Shown: positions 2,909 to 61,909 of the stretch, in pieces
Layout of the letters: each line of letters begins with the position of its first letter
Position numbering within the stretch: the stretch's first letter is position 1
DNA from: Escherichia coli
Lineage (GTDB): Bacteria > Pseudomonadota > Gammaproteobacteria > Enterobacterales > Enterobacteriaceae
NCBI RefSeq assembly: GCF_024223415.1
Contig: NZ_CP100500.1
Reading direction: 5' to 3' (one strand)
DNA: 64,000 nucleotides
Position numbers and translations under genes: made by a program
Notes under the pieces: model-generated
Told to the model about the DNA's origin: nothing
What the model saw: only the letters and a program-made list of their open reading frames with translations
The model's database searches: none

Positions 2909-3435
2909 CAATGAACTGCACCCCAAATGTTGGACATAATCTGACATCTGAAGGTGCAGTTTATGAAACATTCATTTGAAGTAAAACTTGCCGCTGTAAA
3001 TCATTACCTGGCCGGTCATGCAGGCATCATTTCTACGGCAAAACTCTTTCAACTTTCTCACACCAGCCTCTCACACTGGATTAATCTTTTTCTTCTTCAC
3101 GGTCCTCAGGCACTGGATTGCAGACACAAGCGTAGCTATTCTCCTGAAGATAAACTTTGCGTGGTTCTTTATGCTCTCGGGCATTCTGAGTCTCTACCCC
3201 GGGTAGCTGCCCGGTTTAACATTCCCAGCCACAACATGGTTAAAAACTGGATAAAAGGCTACCGCAAATCTGGTAATGAGGCCTTTATCAGGCGCAGGAA
3301 GGAGAAAAGCATGACCCGTTCTGATGATACCCATGAAAACGAGGCAAACATGACGCCGGAAGAGATGAAGAATGAGCTGCGTTATCTTCGCGCAGAAAAT
3401 GCATATCTGAAAGCCATGCAGGAGCATCTCCTGGA

Positions 3436-3442
3436 AAAAAAG
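3436..3442 (+). other. programmed -1 ribosomal frameshift heptamer A AAA AAG
   Basis: A7G run in the orfA zero frame where the orfB reading frame opens; canonical IS3-family frameshift motif. Confidence 0.7.
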
Positions 3443-4343
<901 letters not shown>

Positions 4344-4391
4344 GCAAGCGTCGCATCCGGCAATGTGCTTCAACTAGCGATGGCGCACATC

Positions 4392-12174: not shown

Positions 12175-13890
12175 TTACTTCAGCGGCGAACGGTTACGAT
12201 CAATGCCGTAGCGTTCGATCTCTTTATACGGCACGGTTTTTGACTGGCGCTTGCGCACATCAACCAGCGTCACACGGTCGGTACAGGAGTAGCAGGGATC
12301 AAGGCTACCGATAATCAGCGGTGCGTCAGAAACGGTATTGCCGCGTAGCATGTAACGCAGCACCGGCCAGTTGGCGTAGGTGGCGGCACGACAGCGCCAG
12401 CGGAACAATTTTTGATTATCACCGAGCATGCTCCAGTGCACGTCTTCACCGCGTGGCGCTTCAACAAAGCCGAGTGCGAATGCGTGAGGTTTATAGCTAA
12501 AGCCTTCGGTCAGCAGCGGGGTATCCGGCATGTTGTCGAGGGCAAATTCCAGCATTGCCAGCGAATCAAACGTCTCTTTGACACGGACCATCACGCGGGA
12601 GAAGACATCGCCGCCGGTAAAGGTAAACAGTGTTTTTGGAATATTGCCGTAGTCGGCGTAGGGGTGATCAAAGCGCAAATCACGGGCAAAACCACTGCCG
12701 CGGATCAGCGGTCCTACGGGGCTATAATCACGGGCGATTTGTCGGTCGAGAATGCCAATGCCCTGAGTGCGTTGTTCCATATTCGGCGTGGCAAGCAGCA
12801 TTTCTACCAGCTCCGACACGTCGGCGCGCATCTCGCGCACCAGTTTCAGCGTTTGCAGACGTTGCTCTTTGAGAATATCGCGGCGAACACCACCAATCAG
12901 ATTCAGACCGTAGGTTTTACGCGACCCGGTCAGCAATTCCGCCATTGTCATCGACTTTTCCCGCACGCGGAAAAATTGCATAAAGCCGGTATCAAATCCA
13001 ACAAAATGGCAGGAGAGGCCAAGGTTGAGCAAATGACTGTGTAGCCGTTCGACTTCCAGCAGAATCGAGCGAATGGTATGCGCTCGTTGCGGCACCTCAA
13101 TCCCCAGTGCATTTTCAACCGAGTTGGTATAGGCCACACTGTGGGCAAAACCGCAAATCCCACACACGCGGTCCGATAAGAAGGTCACTTCGTTGTAGCC
13201 CATCCGCGTTTCTGCCAGTTTCTCCATGCCGCGATGGACATAAAACAGGCGGTAATCAGCATCGACAATTTGCTCGCCATCCACAAACAAGCGGAAGTGA
13301 CCCGGTTCATCGGAGGTGATATGCAGCGGGCCGACAGGGATCACCCGCGCATCGCTGTTGCCCTCATTGATAAACGGATACGTTTCGGAATCAGTCGTCG
13401 GTTCAGGGCGCAGTCGATAATCCATCGCATCTTTGCGCAGCGGATGCATATCTTCCGGCCAGTCATCGGGCAACACCAGGCGACGCTGATCCGGCAGGCC
13501 AACCGGAATCAGCCCGTACATATCGCGAATTTCTCGCTCGCCCCAGACCGCGGCAGGGACGCGCGGTGTGACTGACGGAAACTCCCGACTGTCGGCATCG
13601 ACCAGTGCCTTCACCACGATCCAGCATTTTTCGGCCCCTTCCATAGAAAGGGCATAATAAACCGCGTAATGACCGTTAAGTGTCCGCTCGTCGTTGCCAA
13701 ACAGGACCGGAAGCCAGCCATCATGTTGATAATAAAGATACTGTACAACGTCAGGCAGCAGATTGATTTTCACCGTAATGGTGACCTGTTCAGGCGTTTG
13801 TCGCTCTTCATCCAGCACCGCGCCGGGGAACTGCGTTTTCAGGGCGGCGAGAATCGCTTCGCCACGATTTGACGATGAATTAACGTTCAC
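12175..13890 (-). CDS. hyfG: hydrogenase-4 large catalytic subunit ([NiFe], NuoD/HycE-like)
   Basis: ORF track 12175..13935; probable GTG start ([10 protein letters not shown]) preceded by GGAG; start uncertain by a few codons; C-terminal DPCYSCTDR nickel-binding motif. Confidence 0.85.
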
Positions 13891-47054: not shown

Positions 47055-47299
47055 GTCCAGCTGCAATATATTAGTAAAGATTATTACTGAGTTTACGAAT
47101 AATAAAAAAAGCAATATAAAATATCTCGATATTATTTTATTTATATTCATGCGTCGCATATGAAAGTTTATTCATAACAGTAAATATCTCTCCATTCTTA
47201 GTGATCTACCTCACCTTTTAAACGCGCTTGCCGAATTTTGTTATTTACTCTGACGAAAAATTGTCACGATACACGAAAGTTTTTCACAGGCGGCGACTC
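47055..47299 (+). promoter_or_regulatory. eut operon upstream region (main promoter expected here)
   Basis: 245-bp very AT-rich leader upstream of eutS; exact -35/-10 and EutR site not assigned. Confidence 0.4.
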
Positions 47300-52767: not shown

Positions 52768-53604
52768 ATGGCGCACGACGAACAATGGCTCACCCCACGT
52801 CTGCAAACAGCGGCAACGCTGTGTAACCAGACGCCCGCCGCGACGGAATCTCCGCTGTGGCTGGGGGTGGATCTGGGCACCTGCGATGTGGTGTCGATGG
52901 TTGTCGACCGCGACGGTCAGCCAGTGGCGGTATGCCTCGACTGGGCCGATGTGGTTCGCGACGGCATCGTCTGGGATTTCTTCGGCGCGGTCACCATTGT
53001 TCGTCGCCATCTCGACACGCTCGAGCAGCAATTCGGTCGCCGTTTTAGCCATGCGGCGACTTCATTTCCTCCAGGTACGGACCCGCGTATTTCCATCAAC
53101 GTGCTGGAGTCTGCTGGACTGGAAGTGAGCCATGTGCTGGATGAGCCAGCCGCAGTCGCGGATCTGCTGCAACTGGACAACGCCGGTGTAGTGGATATCG
53201 GCGGCGGCACTACCGGCATTGCCATCGTGAAAAAGGGCAAGGTGACGTACTCGGCGGATGAAGCAACCGGCGGACATCACATCTCTCTGACTCTCGCCGG
53301 AAATCGCCGTATTTCGCTGGAAGAGGCAGAGCAGTACAAGCGCGGTCACGGTGACGAGATTTGGCCCGCGGTGAAACCGGTGTACGAAAAAATGGCGGAC
53401 ATTGTCGCCCGGCATATTGAAGGGCAGGGCATTACTGATTTATGGCTGGCGGGCGGCTCCTGTATGCAACCGGGCGTGGCAGAACTGTTTCGCAAACAAT
53501 TCCCGGCGTTACAGGTGCATTTACCGCAGCACAGTTTGTTTATGACCCCGCTGGCGATCGCCAGTAGTGGGCGAGAGAAAGCGGAGGGGCTATATGCAAA
53601 ATGA
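52768..53604 (+). CDS. eutJ: Hsp70/actin-fold Eut chaperone-like protein
   Basis: 278-aa ORF. Confidence 0.85.
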   Translation: MAHDEQWLTPRLQTAATLCNQTPAATESPLWLGVDLGTCDVVSMVVDRDGQPVAVCLDWADVVRDGIVWDFFGAVTIVRRHLDTLEQQFGRRFSHAATSFPPGTDPRISINVLESAGLEVSHVLDEPAAVADLLQLDNAGVVDIGGGTTGIAIVKKGKVTYSADEATGGHHISLTLAGNRRISLEEAEQYKRGHGDEIWPAVKPVYEKMADIVARHIEGQGITDLWLAGGSCMQPGVAELFRKQFPALQVHLPQHSLFMTPLAIASSGREKAEGLYAK

Positions 53605-54781
53605 ATTGCAGACCGCGCTCTTTCAGGCGTTCGATACCCTGAATCTGCAACGGGTAAAAACATTTAGCGTTCCACCGGTGACGCTTTGCGGTCCGGGCTC
53701 GGTGAGCAGTTGCGGACAGCAAGCGCAAACGCGTGGGCTGAAACATCTGTTCGTGATGGCAGACAGCTTTTTGCATCAGGCAGGGATGACCGCCGGGCTG
53801 ACGCGTAGCCTGGCCGTTAAAGGTATCGCCATGACGCTCTGGCCATGTCCGGTGGGCGAACCGTGCATTACCGACGTGTGTGCAGCCGTGGCGCAGTTGC
53901 GTGAGTCAGGTTGTGACGGGGTGATCGCATTTGGCGGCGGCTCGGTGCTGGATGCGGCGAAAGCCGTGGCGTTGCTGGTGACGAACCCGGATAGCACGCT
54001 GGCAGAGATGTCAGAAACCAGCGTTCTGCAACCGCGCTTGCCGCTGATTGCCATTCCAACTACCGCCGGAACCGGCTCTGAAACCACCAATGTAACGGTG
54101 ATTATCGACGCGGTGAGCGGGCGCAAGCAGGTGTTAGCCCATGCCTCGCTGATGCCGGATGTGGCGATCCTCGACGCCGCATTGACCGAAGGTGTGCCGT
54201 CGCATGTCACGGCGATGACCGGCATTGATGCGTTAACCCATGCCATTGAAGCATACAGCGCCCTGAACGCTACACCGTTTACCGACAGTCTGGCGATTGG
54301 TGCCATTGCGATGATTGGCAAATCGCTGCCGAAAGCGGTGGGCTACGGTCACGACCTTGCCGCGCGCGAGAGCATGTTGCTGGCTTCATGTATGGCGGGA
54401 ATGGCGTTTTCCAGTGCGGGTCTTGGGTTGTGCCACGCGATGGCGCATCAGCCGGGCGCGGCGCTGCATATTCCACACGGTCTCGCGAACGCTATGTTGC
54501 TGCCAACGGTGATGGAGTTTAACCGGATGGTTTGTCGTGAACGCTTTAGTCAGATTGGTCGGGCACTGCGAACTAAAAAATCCGACGATCGTGACGCTAT
54601 TAACGCGGTAAGTGAGCTGATTGCGGAAGTTGGGATTGGTAAACGACTGGGCGATGTTGGCGCGACATCTGCGCATTACGGTGCATGGGCGCAGGCCGCG
54701 CAGGAAGATATTTGTCTGCGCAGCAACCCGCGTACCGCCAGCCTGGAACAGATTGTCGGCCTGTACGCAGCGGCGCAATAA
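53594..54781 (+). CDS. eutG: iron-containing alcohol dehydrogenase
   Basis: ORF track 53567..54781; likely start MQNELQTALF giving 395 aa. Confidence 0.85.
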   Translation: MQNELQTALFQAFDTLNLQRVKTFSVPPVTLCGPGSVSSCGQQAQTRGLKHLFVMADSFLHQAGMTAGLTRSLAVKGIAMTLWPCPVGEPCITDVCAAVAQLRESGCDGVIAFGGGSVLDAAKAVALLVTNPDSTLAEMSETSVLQPRLPLIAIPTTAGTGSETTNVTVIIDAVSGRKQVLAHASLMPDVAILDAALTEGVPSHVTAMTGIDALTHAIEAYSALNATPFTDSLAIGAIAMIGKSLPKAVGYGHDLAARESMLLASCMAGMAFSSAGLGLCHAMAHQPGAALHIPHGLANAMLLPTVMEFNRMVCRERFSQIGRALRTKKSDDRDAINAVSELIAEVGIGKRLGDVGATSAHYGAWAQAAQEDICLRSNPRTASLEQIVGLYAAAQ

Positions 54782-54800
54782 ATGCCGGATGCGACGCATG

Positions 54801-56233
<1,433 letters not shown>

Positions 56234-56236
56234 ATG

Positions 56237-56300
56237 TCGCGTCTTATCCGGCCTACGGGATTGCACATGTAGAGCGGATAAAGCGTTCACGCCGCATCCG
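56237..56300. repeat. BIME: right half of the interrupted PU plus a second complete REP/PU
   Basis: tcgcgtcttatccggcctacg then gcggataaagcgttcacgccgcatccgc. Confidence 0.7.
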
Positions 56301-56333
56301 CTAATAAATAACAACTAACAGGGAGTAAAGGCG

Positions 56334-57559
56334 ATGGGAATTAACGAAATCATCATGTACATCATGATGTTCTTTATGCTGATAGCTGCCGTAGACAGGA
56401 TCCTGTCGCAGTTCGGCGGTTCTGCTCGTTTCCTCGGTAAGTTCGGTAAAAGTATCGAAGGATCAGGCGGTCAGTTCGAAGAAGGCTTTATGGCAATGGG
56501 CGCTCTGGGTCTGGCGATGGTCGGTATGACCGCGCTGGCACCGGTACTGGCTCACGTACTCGGGCCGGTAATTATCCCGGTTTACGAAATGCTCGGCGCA
56601 AACCCGTCAATGTTCGCCGGAACGCTGCTGGCGTGCGATATGGGCGGCTTCTTCCTCGCCAAAGAGCTGGCGGGCGGCGACGTAGCCGCGTGGCTATACT
56701 CTGGGTTAATTCTCGGGTCGATGATGGGGCCAACGATTGTGTTTTCCATTCCGGTGGCGCTCGGCATTATCGAACCTTCTGACCGTCGTTATCTGGCGCT
56801 CGGCGTGCTGGCGGGCATTGTGACCATTCCGATTGGTTGTATCGCTGGTGGTCTGGTAGCTATGTACTCCGGTGTGCAGATCAACGGCCAGCCGGTGGAA
56901 TTCACTTTCGCCCTGATCCTGATGAACATGATCCCGGTGATCATTGTTGCGATTCTGGTGGCGCTGGGGCTGAAATTCATCCCGGAAAAAATGATCAACG
57001 GCTTCCAGATCTTCGCCAAATTCCTCGTTGCATTGATCACCCTCGGTCTTGCCGCTGCGGTAGTGAAATTCCTGCTTGGCTGGGAACTGATCCCCGGTCT
57101 GGATCCTATCTTTATGGCCCTGGCGATAAACCCGGTGAGGTGATGCGCGCCATTGAAGTTATCGGTTCTATCTCCTGCGTTCTGTTAGGGGCGTATCCGA
57201 TGGTGCTGCTGCTGACCCGCTGGTTTGAAAAACCGCTGATGAGCGTCGGTAAAGTGCTGAATATGAACAACATCGCGGCAGCCGGCATGGTGGCAACGCT
57301 TGCCAACAACATCCCGATGTTCGGCATGATGAAGCAGATGGATACCCGCGGCAAAGTCATCAACTGCGCCTTCGCCGTTTCTGCTGCTTTCGCCCTGGGC
57401 GACCACTTAGGCTTCGCCGCTGCCAACATGAATGCCATGATCTTCCCGATGATTGTCGGCAAGTTGATCGGCGGCGTAACGGCGATTGGCGTGGCGATGA
57501 TGCTGGTGCCAAAAGACGACGCGGCCGCAGCTAAAACCGAAGCGGAGGCACAATCGTGA
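56334..57559 (+). pseudogene. eutH: ethanolamine permease gene with an apparent 1-nt deletion frameshift
   Basis: EutH-like membrane protein is split into a 269-aa ORF (56334..57143) and an overlapping +1-frame ORF ending at 57559; total span is 1226 nt, one short of the 1227 nt needed for the 408 aa plus stop that I recall for EutH; frames switch between about 57090 and 57143. Confidence 0.6.
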
Positions 57560-58959
57560 ACACTCGCCAGCTACTGAGCGTCGGTATCGATATCGGCACC
57601 ACCACCACTCAGGTGATTTTCTCCCACCTGGAACTGGTTAACCGTGCGGCGGTGTCGCAGGTGCCGCGCTACGAATTCATCAAACGCGAAATTAGCTGGC
57701 AAAGCCCGGTGTTCTTTACCCCTGTCGATAAACAGGGTGGTTTAAAAGAAGCGGAACTGAAATCGCTGATTTTAGAGCAATATCAGGCTGCGGGCATTGC
57801 GCCGGAAAGCGTTGATTCTGGTGCCATCATCATCACCGGTGAAAGCGCGAAAACCCGCAATGCTCGCCCGGCGGTGATGGCGCTCTCTCAGTCGCTGGGC
57901 GATTTTGTCGTCGCCAGCGCCGGGCCGCACCTCGAATCCGTGATCGCCGGTCACGGAGCCGGGGCACAAACCCTTTCTGAACAACGGCTGTGTCGGGTAC
58001 TGAATATCGACATTGGCGGTGGCACCGCGAACTACGCCCTGTTCGATGCCGGAAAAATCAGCGGCACTGCCTGCCTCAACGTCGGTGGTCGCCTGCTGGA
58101 AACCGACAGCCAGGGGCGCGTGGTTTACGCTCATAAACCGGGGCAGATGATTGTGGATGAGTGCTTCGGCGCAGGCACCGACGCCCGTTCGCTGACCGGC
58201 GCGCAGCTGGTGCAGGTTACCCGGCGGATGGCAGAGCTGATTGTCGAAGTGATTGACGGAACGCTCTCGCCGCTCGCGCAGGCATTAATGCAAACCGGTT
58301 TGCTCCCCGCAGGTGTTACGCCCGAAATCATTACGCTTTCTGGCGGCGTGGGCGAATGTTATCGCCACCAGCCCGCCGACCCGTTCTGTTTTGCCGATAT
58401 TGGCCCACTTCTGGCAACGGCGCTGCATGACCATCCGCGCCTGCGTGAGATGAATGTGCAGTTTCCGGCGCAAACCGTACGCGCCACGGTGATTGGCGCG
58501 GGGGCACATACCCTTTCGCTCTCTGGCAGCACAATCTGGCTGGAGGGCGTACAACTGCCGCTGCGCAATTTGCCGGTGGCGATCCCGATTGATGAAACGG
58601 ATCTGGTGGGTGCCTGGCAACAGGCGCTGATTCAGCTGGATCTTGATCCCAAAACTGACGCGTACGTGCTGGCGCTTCCCGCCTCGCTGCCTGTGCGTTA
58701 CGCCGCGGTACTGACGGTCATCAACGCGTTGGTCGATTTCGTCGCGCGTTTTCCGAATCCGCATCCCCTGCTGGTGGTGGCCGGGCAGGACTTTGGTAAA
58801 GCTCTGGGCATGTTGTTGCGCCCACAGCTACAACAACTCCCGTTGGCAGTCATTGACGAAGTGATTGTCCGCGCGGGGGACTATATCGACATTGGTACGC
58901 CTCTTTTTGGCGGATCGGTTGTGCCGGTGACGGTGAAATCACTCGCATTTCCTTCCTGA
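57556..58959 (+). CDS. eutA: ethanolamine ammonia-lyase reactivase
   Basis: 467-aa ORF MNTRQLLSVGIDIGTTTTQV... Confidence 0.9.
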   Translation: MNTRQLLSVGIDIGTTTTQVIFSHLELVNRAAVSQVPRYEFIKREISWQSPVFFTPVDKQGGLKEAELKSLILEQYQAAGIAPESVDSGAIIITGESAKTRNARPAVMALSQSLGDFVVASAGPHLESVIAGHGAGAQTLSEQRLCRVLNIDIGGGTANYALFDAGKISGTACLNVGGRLLETDSQGRVVYAHKPGQMIVDECFGAGTDARSLTGAQLVQVTRRMAELIVEVIDGTLSPLAQALMQTGLLPAGVTPEIITLSGGVGECYRHQPADPFCFADIGPLLATALHDHPRLREMNVQFPAQTVRATVIGAGAHTLSLSGSTIWLEGVQLPLRNLPVAIPIDETDLVGAWQQALIQLDLDPKTDAYVLALPASLPVRYAAVLTVINALVDFVARFPNPHPLLVVAGQDFGKALGMLLRPQLQQLPLAVIDEVIVRAGDYIDIGTPLFGGSVVPVTVKSLAFPS

Positions 58960-58970
58960 GGGAACGACTT

Positions 58971-60332
58971 ATGAAACTAAAGACCACATTGTTCGGCAAT
59001 GTATATCAGTTTAAGGATGTAAAAGAGGTGCTGGCTAAAGCCAACGAACTGCGTTCGGGGGATGTGCTGGCAGGCGTTGCAGCGGCAAGTTCACAGGAGC
59101 GCGTGGCGGCAAAGCAGGTGTTGTCGGAAATGACCGTAGCGGACATCCGCAATAATCCGGTGATTGCCTATGAAGATGACTGCGTGACGCGGCTGATTCA
59201 GGACGATGTTAACGAAACGGCCTACAACCAGATTAAAAACTGGAGCATCAGCGAACTGCGTGAGTATGTGCTGAGCGATGAAACCAGCGTGGACGACATT
59301 GCCTTTACCCGCAAAGGGCTGACCTCGGAAGTGGTCGCGGCGGTAGCGAAGATTTGCTCCAACGCGGACCTGATCTACGGCGCGAAGAAAATGCCGGTAA
59401 TCAAAAAGGCCAATACCACCATCGGTATTCCGGGCACCTTCAGCGCCCGTTTGCAGCCAAATGACACTCGTGACGACGTGCAAAGTATCGCCGCGCAAAT
59501 CTACGAAGGGCTTTCCTTCGGGGTGGGCGATGCGGTGATCGGCGTTAACCCGGTGACTGACGACGTGGAAAACTTAAGCCGCGTGCTGGATACCATTTAT
59601 GGCGTGATCGACAAATTCAACATCCCAACTCAGGGCTGCGTACTGGCGCACGTCACCACCCAGATCGAAGCGATTCGTCGCGGCGCGCCTGGCGGACTGA
59701 TTTTCCAGAGTATCTGTGGCAGCGAAAAAGGGCTGAAAGAGTTTGGCGTGGAACTGGCGATGCTCGACGAAGCGCGCGCAGTGGGCGCAGAGTTCAACCG
59801 TATCGCCGGGGAAAACTGCCTCTACTTCGAAACCGGACAAGGCTCTGCGCTATCCGCTGGCGCTAACTTCGGCGCTGACCAGGTGACGATGGAAGCACGT
59901 AACTATGGGCTGGCGCGTCATTACGATCCGTTTATCGTCAACACCGTGGTCGGTTTTATTGGGCCGGAGTATCTCTACAACGACCGCCAGATTATCCGTG
60001 CTGGCTTAGAAGATCACTTTATGGGCAAGCTGAGCGGCATCTCTATGGGCTGTGACTGCTGTTACACCAACCACGCTGACGCTGACCAGAACCTCAACGA
60101 AAACCTGATGATCCTGCTCGCCACCGCAGGCTGCAACTACATCATGGGGATGCCGTTGGGTGATGACATCATGCTCAACTACCAGACCACCGCATTCCAC
60201 GATACCGCCACTGTGCGTCAGTTACTCAACCTGCGCCCGTCACCGGAGTTTGAACGCTGGCTGGAAAGCATGGGCATTATGGCAAACGGTCGCCTGACCA
60301 AACGGGCGGGCGATCCGTCACTGTTCTTCTGA
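58971..60332 (+). CDS. eutB: ethanolamine ammonia-lyase large subunit
   Basis: 453-aa ORF. Confidence 0.9.
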   Translation: MKLKTTLFGNVYQFKDVKEVLAKANELRSGDVLAGVAAASSQERVAAKQVLSEMTVADIRNNPVIAYEDDCVTRLIQDDVNETAYNQIKNWSISELREYVLSDETSVDDIAFTRKGLTSEVVAAVAKICSNADLIYGAKKMPVIKKANTTIGIPGTFSARLQPNDTRDDVQSIAAQIYEGLSFGVGDAVIGVNPVTDDVENLSRVLDTIYGVIDKFNIPTQGCVLAHVTTQIEAIRRGAPGGLIFQSICGSEKGLKEFGVELAMLDEARAVGAEFNRIAGENCLYFETGQGSALSAGANFGADQVTMEARNYGLARHYDPFIVNTVVGFIGPEYLYNDRQIIRAGLEDHFMGKLSGISMGCDCCYTNHADADQNLNENLMILLATAGCNYIMGMPLGDDIMLNYQTTAFHDTATVRQLLNLRPSPEFERWLESMGIMANGRLTKRAGDPSLFF

Positions 60333-60352
60333 TGACGCGGAGATAACACATC

Positions 60353-61240
60353 ATGGATCAAAAACAGATTGAAGAAATTGTACGCAGCGTGATGGCGTCA
60401 ATGGGACAAACGGCCCCCGCGCCGTCAGAAGCAAAGTGCGCCACTACCACCTGTGCGGCACCGGTGACCTCGGAAAGCTGCGCGCTGGATTTAGGTTCTG
60501 CGGAAGCAAAAGCGTGGATTGGTGTTGAAAACCCACATCGTGCGGATGTGTTAACAGAACTGCGTCGCAGCACCGTGGCCCGCGTTTGTACCGGTCGTGC
60601 CGGTCCGCGTCCGCGTACCCAGGCGCTGCTGCGTTTCCTGGCCGATCACTCTCGTTCGAAAGATACCGTACTTAAAGAAGTGCCGGAAGAGTGGGTGAAA
60701 GCGCAGGGCTTGCTGGAAGTACGCTCTGAAATTAGCGACAAAAATCTCTACCTGACTCGCCCGGATATGGGCCGCCGCCTGTGTGCAGAAGCTGTTGAAG
60801 CGCTGAAAGCGCAGTGTGTTGCCAATCCGGACGTGCAGGTCGTTATTTCTGATGGCCTGTCAACTGATGCGATCACCGTGAACTACGAAGAGATCCTGCC
60901 ACCGCTGATGGCGGGCCTGAAACAGGCCGGGCTGAAAGTCGGTACACCATTCTTTGTTCGTTATGGTCGCGTGAAGATTGAAGATCAGATCGGTGAGATC
61001 CTCGGCGCGAAAGTGGTGATCCTGCTGGTGGGCGAACGTCCGGGGTTGGGTCAGTCAGAAAGCCTCTCCTGCTACGCCGTTTACTCGCCACGTATGGCGA
61101 CCACCGTTGAGGCCGATCGCACCTGTATCTCTAACATTCACCAGGGCGGCACGCCGCCGGTTGAAGCCGCAGCCGTCATTGTGGATTTGGCGAAACGTAT
61201 GCTGGAGCAGAAAGCATCCGGCATCAACATGACCCGATAA
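60353..61240 (+). CDS. eutC: ethanolamine ammonia-lyase small subunit
   Basis: 295-aa ORF. Confidence 0.9.
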
Positions 61241-61249
61241 GGAGGCATC

Positions 61250-61909
61250 ATGCCAGCTTTAGATTTGATTCGACCGTCTGTCACCGCTATGCGGGTGATT
61301 GCCTCCGTTAACGCCGATTTTGCGCGTGAACTAAAATTGCCGCCGCATATTCGTAGCCTCGGTCTGATTTCTGCCGACTCCGATGACGTCACCTACATTG
61401 CCGCTGATGAAGCGACCAAGCAGGCGATGGTGGAAGTGGTGTATGGCCGCTCGCTGTATGCGGGAGCGGCACACGGCCCGTCACCGACTGCCGGTGAAGT
61501 GCTGATTATGCTTGGTGGGCCAAACCCGGCGGAAGTGCGTGCAGGTCTGGATGCGATGGTTGCGCATATTGAAAATGGCGCTGCTTTCCAGTGGGCTAAT
61601 GATGCGCAAGATACGGCATTCCTGGCACATGTAGTTTCGCGTACCGGTTCTTATCTCTCATCAACCGCCGGGATCACGCTTGGCGATCCGATGGCGTATC
61701 TGGTGGCACCGCCGCTGGAAGCGACCTACGGCATTGATGCAGCGTTGAAATCTGCCGACGTACAGCTGGTGACCTATGTCCCGCCACCGTCTGAAACCAA
61801 CTACTCGGCAGCATTTTTAACCGGTAGCCAGGCCGCGTGTAAAGCAGCCTGTAACGCCTTTACCGATGCAGTGCTGGAAATCGCGCGTAATCCAATCCAG
61901 CGTGCGTAA
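61250..61909 (+). CDS. eutL: BMC shell protein (tandem-domain pseudohexamer)
   Basis: 219-aa ORF. Confidence 0.9.

Follow-up and report, generated by a model that had tools for sequence, protein, structure and literature searches.

EutH, the ethanolamine permease represented by Pfam PF04346 and by the NCBIfam model NF011665 (408 positions), is encoded in E. coli K-12 by b2452, a gene located between eutG and eutA. PMC7677406, which cites Anderson 2018 and Kaval and Garsin 2018 for the role of EutH, describes the protein as needed at acid pH, where ethanolamine is protonated, whereas at neutral pH ethanolamine diffuses into the cell. The insertion sequence IS1397 has a target preference for the palindromic units of REP/BIME elements (PMC1525189).

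We analyzed a 64,000-nt stretch of E. coli DNA (hereafter the window), in which the gene order eutG-eutH-eutA is the same as in strains SCU-316, NCTC10444 and K-12, and in which eutH occupies the same place between eutG and eutA as b2452. Unlike that of intact EutH, the reading frame in the window is broken after residue 262. The features of the locus are as follows.

53594-54781, plus strand: eutG, intact, the last gene upstream of IS1397.
54802-56233, minus strand (transposase): IS1397, IS3 family, 1432 bp, in the loop of a REP palindrome between eutG and eutH.
56334-57143, plus strand: N-terminal fragment of eutH, consisting of native residues 1-262, then LAINPVR (seven out-of-frame residues) and a TGA stop.
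57118-57120, plus strand: lesion site, CCC here and CCCC in the intact gene, overlapping the Dcm motif CCTGG at 57119-57123.
57137-57144, plus strand: GAGGTGAT, 8 nt complementary to the 3' end of 16S rRNA, preceding the ATG of Met271.
57141-57145, plus strand: stop/start overlap TGATG, in which the stop of the N-terminal fragment overlaps the ATG of native Met271.
57143-57559, plus strand: C-terminal fragment of eutH, consisting of native residues 271-408 and the stop, its frame displaced by the deletion.
57556-58959, plus strand: eutA, intact, with a GTG start that overlaps the eutH stop (GTGA).

The N-terminal open reading frame (ORF) encodes 269 aa and ends in ..GLDPIFMALAINPVR, followed by the stop at 57143; a second ORF, in the +1 frame, stays open from 56837 up to its end at 57559. 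Both were found as the first-pass annotation had described them. Together they span 1226 nt, whereas the closest genomes have an intact eutH of 1227 nt (408 codons plus stop), in agreement with the earlier calculation that the span is one nucleotide short of a complete gene. Using the 1226-nt span as the query, we detected eutH in 5410 of the 5426 complete E. coli genomes in RefSeq; among these, the five nearest (SCU-316, O78 strain 3, NCTC10444, NCTC9112 and KV7) aligned with 99.9% identity over 1227 nt, and eutH in the window differs from these five intact genes only by a missing C. In a global alignment with SCU-316 eutH, the sole difference is one C missing at 57118-57120 (CCCC to CCC), such that ATGGCCCCTGG in the intact SCU-316 gene becomes ATGGCCCTGG in the window; the intact allele WP_000512369.1 corresponds to eutH of the window but for this one base. 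In a simulation, deletion of a single nucleotide anywhere within nucleotides 755-808 of the gene (57088-57141 in the window) produced an identical 269-aa product, a range that matches the interval of uncertainty given earlier (57090-57143). Although the simulation leaves a range of 54 nt, the alignment to SCU-316 narrows the lesion to the C-run, the very site that had been proposed.

The NF011665 profile matched the N-terminal fragment over positions 1-266 (555.1 bits) and the C-terminal fragment over positions 263-408 (303.5 bits), consistent with the earlier assignment of both to EutH; neither fragment reaches the full-length cutoff of 574 bits. The gene in the window is a disrupted member of the EutH family, as its fragments jointly cover the whole profile and none is full-length. 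In deletion-bearing genomes, public gene callers call a 138-aa ORF from the ATG of Met271, and the allele of the window is already present in public records as a “putative ethanolamine transporter” (SRA13882.1 and SRA13881.1).

We consider it very probable that the one-base deletion is genuine and clonally inherited, that it probably inactivates the gene, and that it reflects neither a sequencing error nor a new mechanism. On the simplest account, replication slippage would have shortened the run of four Cs in codons 262-263 to three, and the deletion would then have been inherited within a small E. coli clone, of which NCTC10444 is the closest complete-genome relative. The competing explanation to be weighed first is that eutH is in truth intact, with CCCC at this site, and that a long-read consensus dropped one C of a homopolymer overlapping a methylated Dcm site. 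The window spans two 1.4-kb copies of IS1397, so it is probably derived from a long-read or finished assembly, and nanopore consensus errors in Enterobacteriaceae fall predominantly into two classes, those at Dcm motifs and those at homopolymers (PMC6591954). The identical loss of C in eutH occurs in three error-rich K-12-like assemblies (L008, L010 and L012), each with 4-8 other single-base deletions per 6 kb that fall at homopolymers and CCWGG sites; in these assemblies the eutH change is surely an artefact. An 81-nt exact match found the CCC allele in none of 3147 scorable RefSeq complete genomes, K-12-type alleles included. The exact 269-aa fragment was found in 84 contigs (121 index blocks), mostly with other eutH alleles.

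Evidence against an artefact comes from genomes that carry the same allele. The 138-aa C-terminal fragment of the window allele (..PKDDAAAAKTEAEAQS) differs from that of other alleles; being allele-specific, it served as a bait for genomes that combine this allele with a frameshift in the region, and it is on record in 10 public contigs. One of these (L020, GCA_900482235.1, contig UDHK01000033.1) is 100% identical to positions 56086-61559 of the window, deletion included; this 37-kb contig breaks off 167 nt into IS1397, and it represents two samples and three further similar places. A second (L022, SRR19977217) is 100% identical to positions 56204-57721, again with the deletion. Three further contigs, also from clone-mates, match the window exactly and without gaps, over 17.6 kb (L017, ERR3437659), 10.2 kb (L027, SRR19977205) and 4 kb (L015, SRR7874689, five samples), and another (L016, GCA_053732715.1) has three single-nucleotide polymorphisms (SNPs) and no gap over 22 kb. 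This last contig, 50,439 nt long, is the exact interval between the two IS1397 copies of the window; ending at both copies, it behaves like a short-read assembly of a genome with both insertions. The lesion is thus reproduced in independent assemblies of the same lineage (L020 and L022), whose platforms we infer from the behavior of their contigs: both break at the insertion sequence as short-read assemblies do, yet both carry the same deletion in the same allele. For the same miscall to arise in several assemblies made independently, all of them broken at repeats, would be very unlikely, which argues against an error.

The remainder of the window points in the same direction. It contains 774 homopolymers of at least 4 bases and 159 Dcm sites, 11 of which are fused to C/G runs of at least 4. 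Had the consensus come from noisy long reads, differences from the relatives should appear at many such sites, whereas only one was seen. The clone-mates show no other indel relative to the window over about 50 kb of overlap, and there are only two indels relative to NCTC10444 despite the 11 fused Dcm sites. A dropped base in the consensus is therefore very improbable, and the homopolymer error that the first-pass annotation had offered as an option is disfavored, given that clone-mates share the deletion and that the window agrees with its relatives at all other homopolymers and Dcm sites. The C-run is the site of a real deletion fixed in this clone and of a recurrent artefact in long-read assemblies elsewhere; because the run overlaps a Dcm site, the same deletion recurs in noisy long-read assemblies of other lineages. 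An isolated frameshift of eutH at this C-run is thus due a short-read check before it is taken as biological. Literature searches for the supporting run and assembly accessions gave no matches, and a search for a eutH pseudogene yielded no relevant paper, only false positives of the form “euthan...”.

Over 64 kb, the window aligned to NCTC10444 (NZ_LR134092.1) with 99.97% identity; the two differ by 16 SNPs, two one-base indels and two differences in the presence or absence of IS1397. One of the indels is the eutH deletion. The other is a T missing at 54800, at the left junction of IS1397, where the window reads GACGCATG-CTGAAC and the otherwise identical NCTC10444 insertion reads GACGCATGTCTGAAC. 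The lost T belongs to the left copy of the duplicated target, outside any homopolymer; either genome may be the derived one, or the difference may be a record error. At position 13881 (minus strand), the stop of hyfF is TAA in the window and TCA in NCTC10444, whose hyfF is marked as an incomplete pseudogene in RefSeq; this lesion belongs to NCTC10444 and not to the window. In the maeB-eutS intergenic region, about 220 nt upstream of eutS and in the expected place of the eut operon promoter, position 47080 is A in the window and in ERR3437659, and C in NCTC10444 and GCA_053732715.1. Two protein variants of the window, AegA R485C and YpfN D31Y, recovered clone-mates, and most carriers of YpfN D31Y belong to unrelated lineages with about 98% identity.

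If translated from the eutH start, the protein would leave the native frame after Ala262, add seven wrong residues and stop at 57141-57143, and the full-length 408-aa ethanolamine permease would no longer be made. A structure search found no solved EutH structure, and a homologue search returned E. coli-like sequences only, too uniform for a useful structure model, so hydropathy was used instead. In the hydropathy scan, nothing else in the finely scanned region (residues 241-295) is as hydrophilic as the missing residues 263-270 (PGDKPGEV); this loop lies between transmembrane-like segments at residues 230-248 and 276-294, and the C-terminal third of the protein contains at least two further hydrophobic segments. 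Because this last third, at least two transmembrane-like segments included, is absent, the truncated EutH is most probably inactive, judging from its sequence. As EutH is needed at acid pH, the predicted phenotype is conditional, and it is expected to be mild, with poorer uptake of ethanolamine at acid pH or at low concentration. The clone may therefore take up ethanolamine poorly in acidic niches, and its eutH should be annotated as a frameshifted pseudogene.

The architecture of the break admits a reading in which the deletion is real and the gene is still alive. Termination at the TGA (57141-57143) would be followed by reinitiation at the ATG of Met271, and the two products (residues 1-262 with a short tail, and residues 271-408) could assemble as a permease. 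The stop/start overlap TGATG, preceded by GAGGTGAT, is a possible termination-reinitiation site on sequence grounds, and the loss to the protein would be 8 native residues, hydrophilic and situated between two transmembrane-like segments. Polytopic permeases such as LacY tolerate expression as two pieces split in loops. The features shared with such split permeases are a break in a hydrophilic loop between hydrophobic segments and, by analogy, an overlap of stop and start that could let both pieces be made. However, the Shine-Dalgarno-like sequence is too close to the ATG for de novo initiation to be efficient, and we saw no natural EutH encoded by two genes. Public data contain other EutH fragments derived from frameshifts at about the same frequency (a 119-aa fragment occurs in 123 contigs), so the split at this site is not specially enriched. 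The clone-mates are 100% identical and so provide no power to detect continued purifying selection on the split gene. We regard a functional two-piece EutH as improbable; if it did exist, continued translation would also shield eutA-eutR from polarity. Whereas the halves of LacY complement each other, the eutH pieces are known here as sequences, and the resemblance is a lead and not a classification. An inactivated eutH remains the preferred interpretation.

Sister isolates with the same eutH allele and no IS1397 carry other lesions nearby. Isolates L019 (SRR31140305) and L021 (SRR22360841) have CCC shortened to CC at 57129-57131, and isolate L018 (SRR11355447) has GGCCCC changed to GACCC along with a Met-to-Ile substitution at 56924; these lesions are either independent inactivations of eutH or errors. 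A programmed event at the C-run, in which a slippery or hypermutable tract would restore or toggle EutH by recoding or phase variation, could account for one site being affected in several allelic backgrounds and for differing 1-nt deletions within 15 nt in these sister isolates. However, runs of 3-4 Cs are not known to be long enough for transcriptional slippage or phase variation. There is also no X XXY YYZ heptamer, and programmed frameshifting was rejected on the absence of this slippery motif. The clustering of lesions reflects ascertainment, many recurrences are in error-ridden assemblies, and we give recoding or phase variation almost no credence. A mutational hotspot or selected target was likewise rejected: any 1-nt deletion in the 54-nt interval yields the bait ORF, and the lesions cluster within 15 nt because the bait ORF ascertains only that interval.

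Variation of another kind was observed elsewhere in the gene. Within eutH, positions 56755-56804 contain two copies of an 11-bp direct repeat (TGGCGCTCGGC), set 39 nt apart. In many public EutH proteins, of 395 aa, precisely the 13 residues between the repeats (ALGIIEPSDRRYL) are absent, a 421-aa form duplicates these 13 residues, and other in-frame deletions give forms of 382-392 aa; structural variation seems to affect eutH often in E. coli and Salmonella.

The first-pass annotation had also read the upstream insertion sequence, together with the frameshift, as a sign that the distal eut genes are decaying. The insertion sequence is indeed present. Both transposase ORFs are matched by NF033516; the copy shares 99.9% identity with its counterpart at this position in NCTC10444, for which the RefSeq annotation is [quoted passage not shown], and 99-99.9% identity with RefSeq copies annotated as IS1397 family. 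It lies 100 nt upstream of eutH in an intergenic REP sequence and interrupts no gene. The empty site, found in SCU-316 and L018, is the REP palindrome GCCGGATGCGACGC-ATG-TCGCGTCTTATCCGGC, and IS1397 sits in its loop. In NCTC10444, IS1397 is at the same position and eutH is intact, which indicates that the insertion is probably older than the deletion. It is plausible that IS1397 inserted first and that the deletion in eutH followed; the insertion is probably a separate, older event at a normal REP target.

IS1397 may already have lowered transcription of eutH-eutR and thereby relaxed selection on eutH. In its full form, this explanation holds that IS1397, read antisense, blocks the transcription that starts at the main eut promoter, such that eutH-eutR are unexpressed and free to gather lesions. 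It draws on the location of IS1397 between eutG and eutH, on its probable precedence over the deletion given the intact eutH of NCTC10444, and on the clone-mate contigs that end exactly at the positions of the insertion sequence. It does not fit well with the state of the operon: eutA, B, C, L, K and R are intact and identical to their counterparts in NCTC10444, and a GGAGG belonging to eutA lies 7 nt ahead of the GTG start. Overall, the proteins encoded by eutS, P, Q, T, D, M, N, E, J, G, A, B, C, L, K and R, as well as by maeB, are identical to the intact RefSeq proteins of NCTC10444; thus eutH is the only broken eut gene, and the 16 others are intact. A scan of the insertion sequence and the eutH region for promoters and terminators gave hits at chance level and is uninformative as to polarity. 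In several other RefSeq genomes (H42-H45), IS1397 likewise occupies the eutG-eutH intergenic region, there within a longer BIME, and eutH is annotated as intact. In our judgment, one frameshift beside 16 SNPs needs, on its face, no relaxed selection. Decay of the distal operon is unlikely on this evidence: the broken eutH and the insertion sequence upstream of it stand, whereas the 16 intact genes and the intact eutH of NCTC10444 behind the same insertion leave the wider claim weakly supported.

Copies of IS1397 also vary at other positions. One copy, downstream of uraA at about 2911-4344, is present in the window and absent in NCTC10444; another, between ypfG and tkt, is present in NCTC10444 and absent in the window (at about 41430). 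Relatives have about 10 copies per genome. Such variation between near-identical genomes points to recent activity of the element in this lineage.

Compared with described systems, the insertion upstream of eutH resembles published IS1397 insertions, which involve the same 1432-bp IS3-family element in the loop of a REP sequence in an intergenic position. The break in eutH is an ordinary strain-level gene inactivation. It shares with the frameshift pseudogenes at short homopolymers in individual strains of E. coli and Shigella the loss of one base in a 4-nt run, a conditionally dispensable gene, clonal inheritance and intact neighbors; the only distinctive point is that the run in eutH overlaps a Dcm site.
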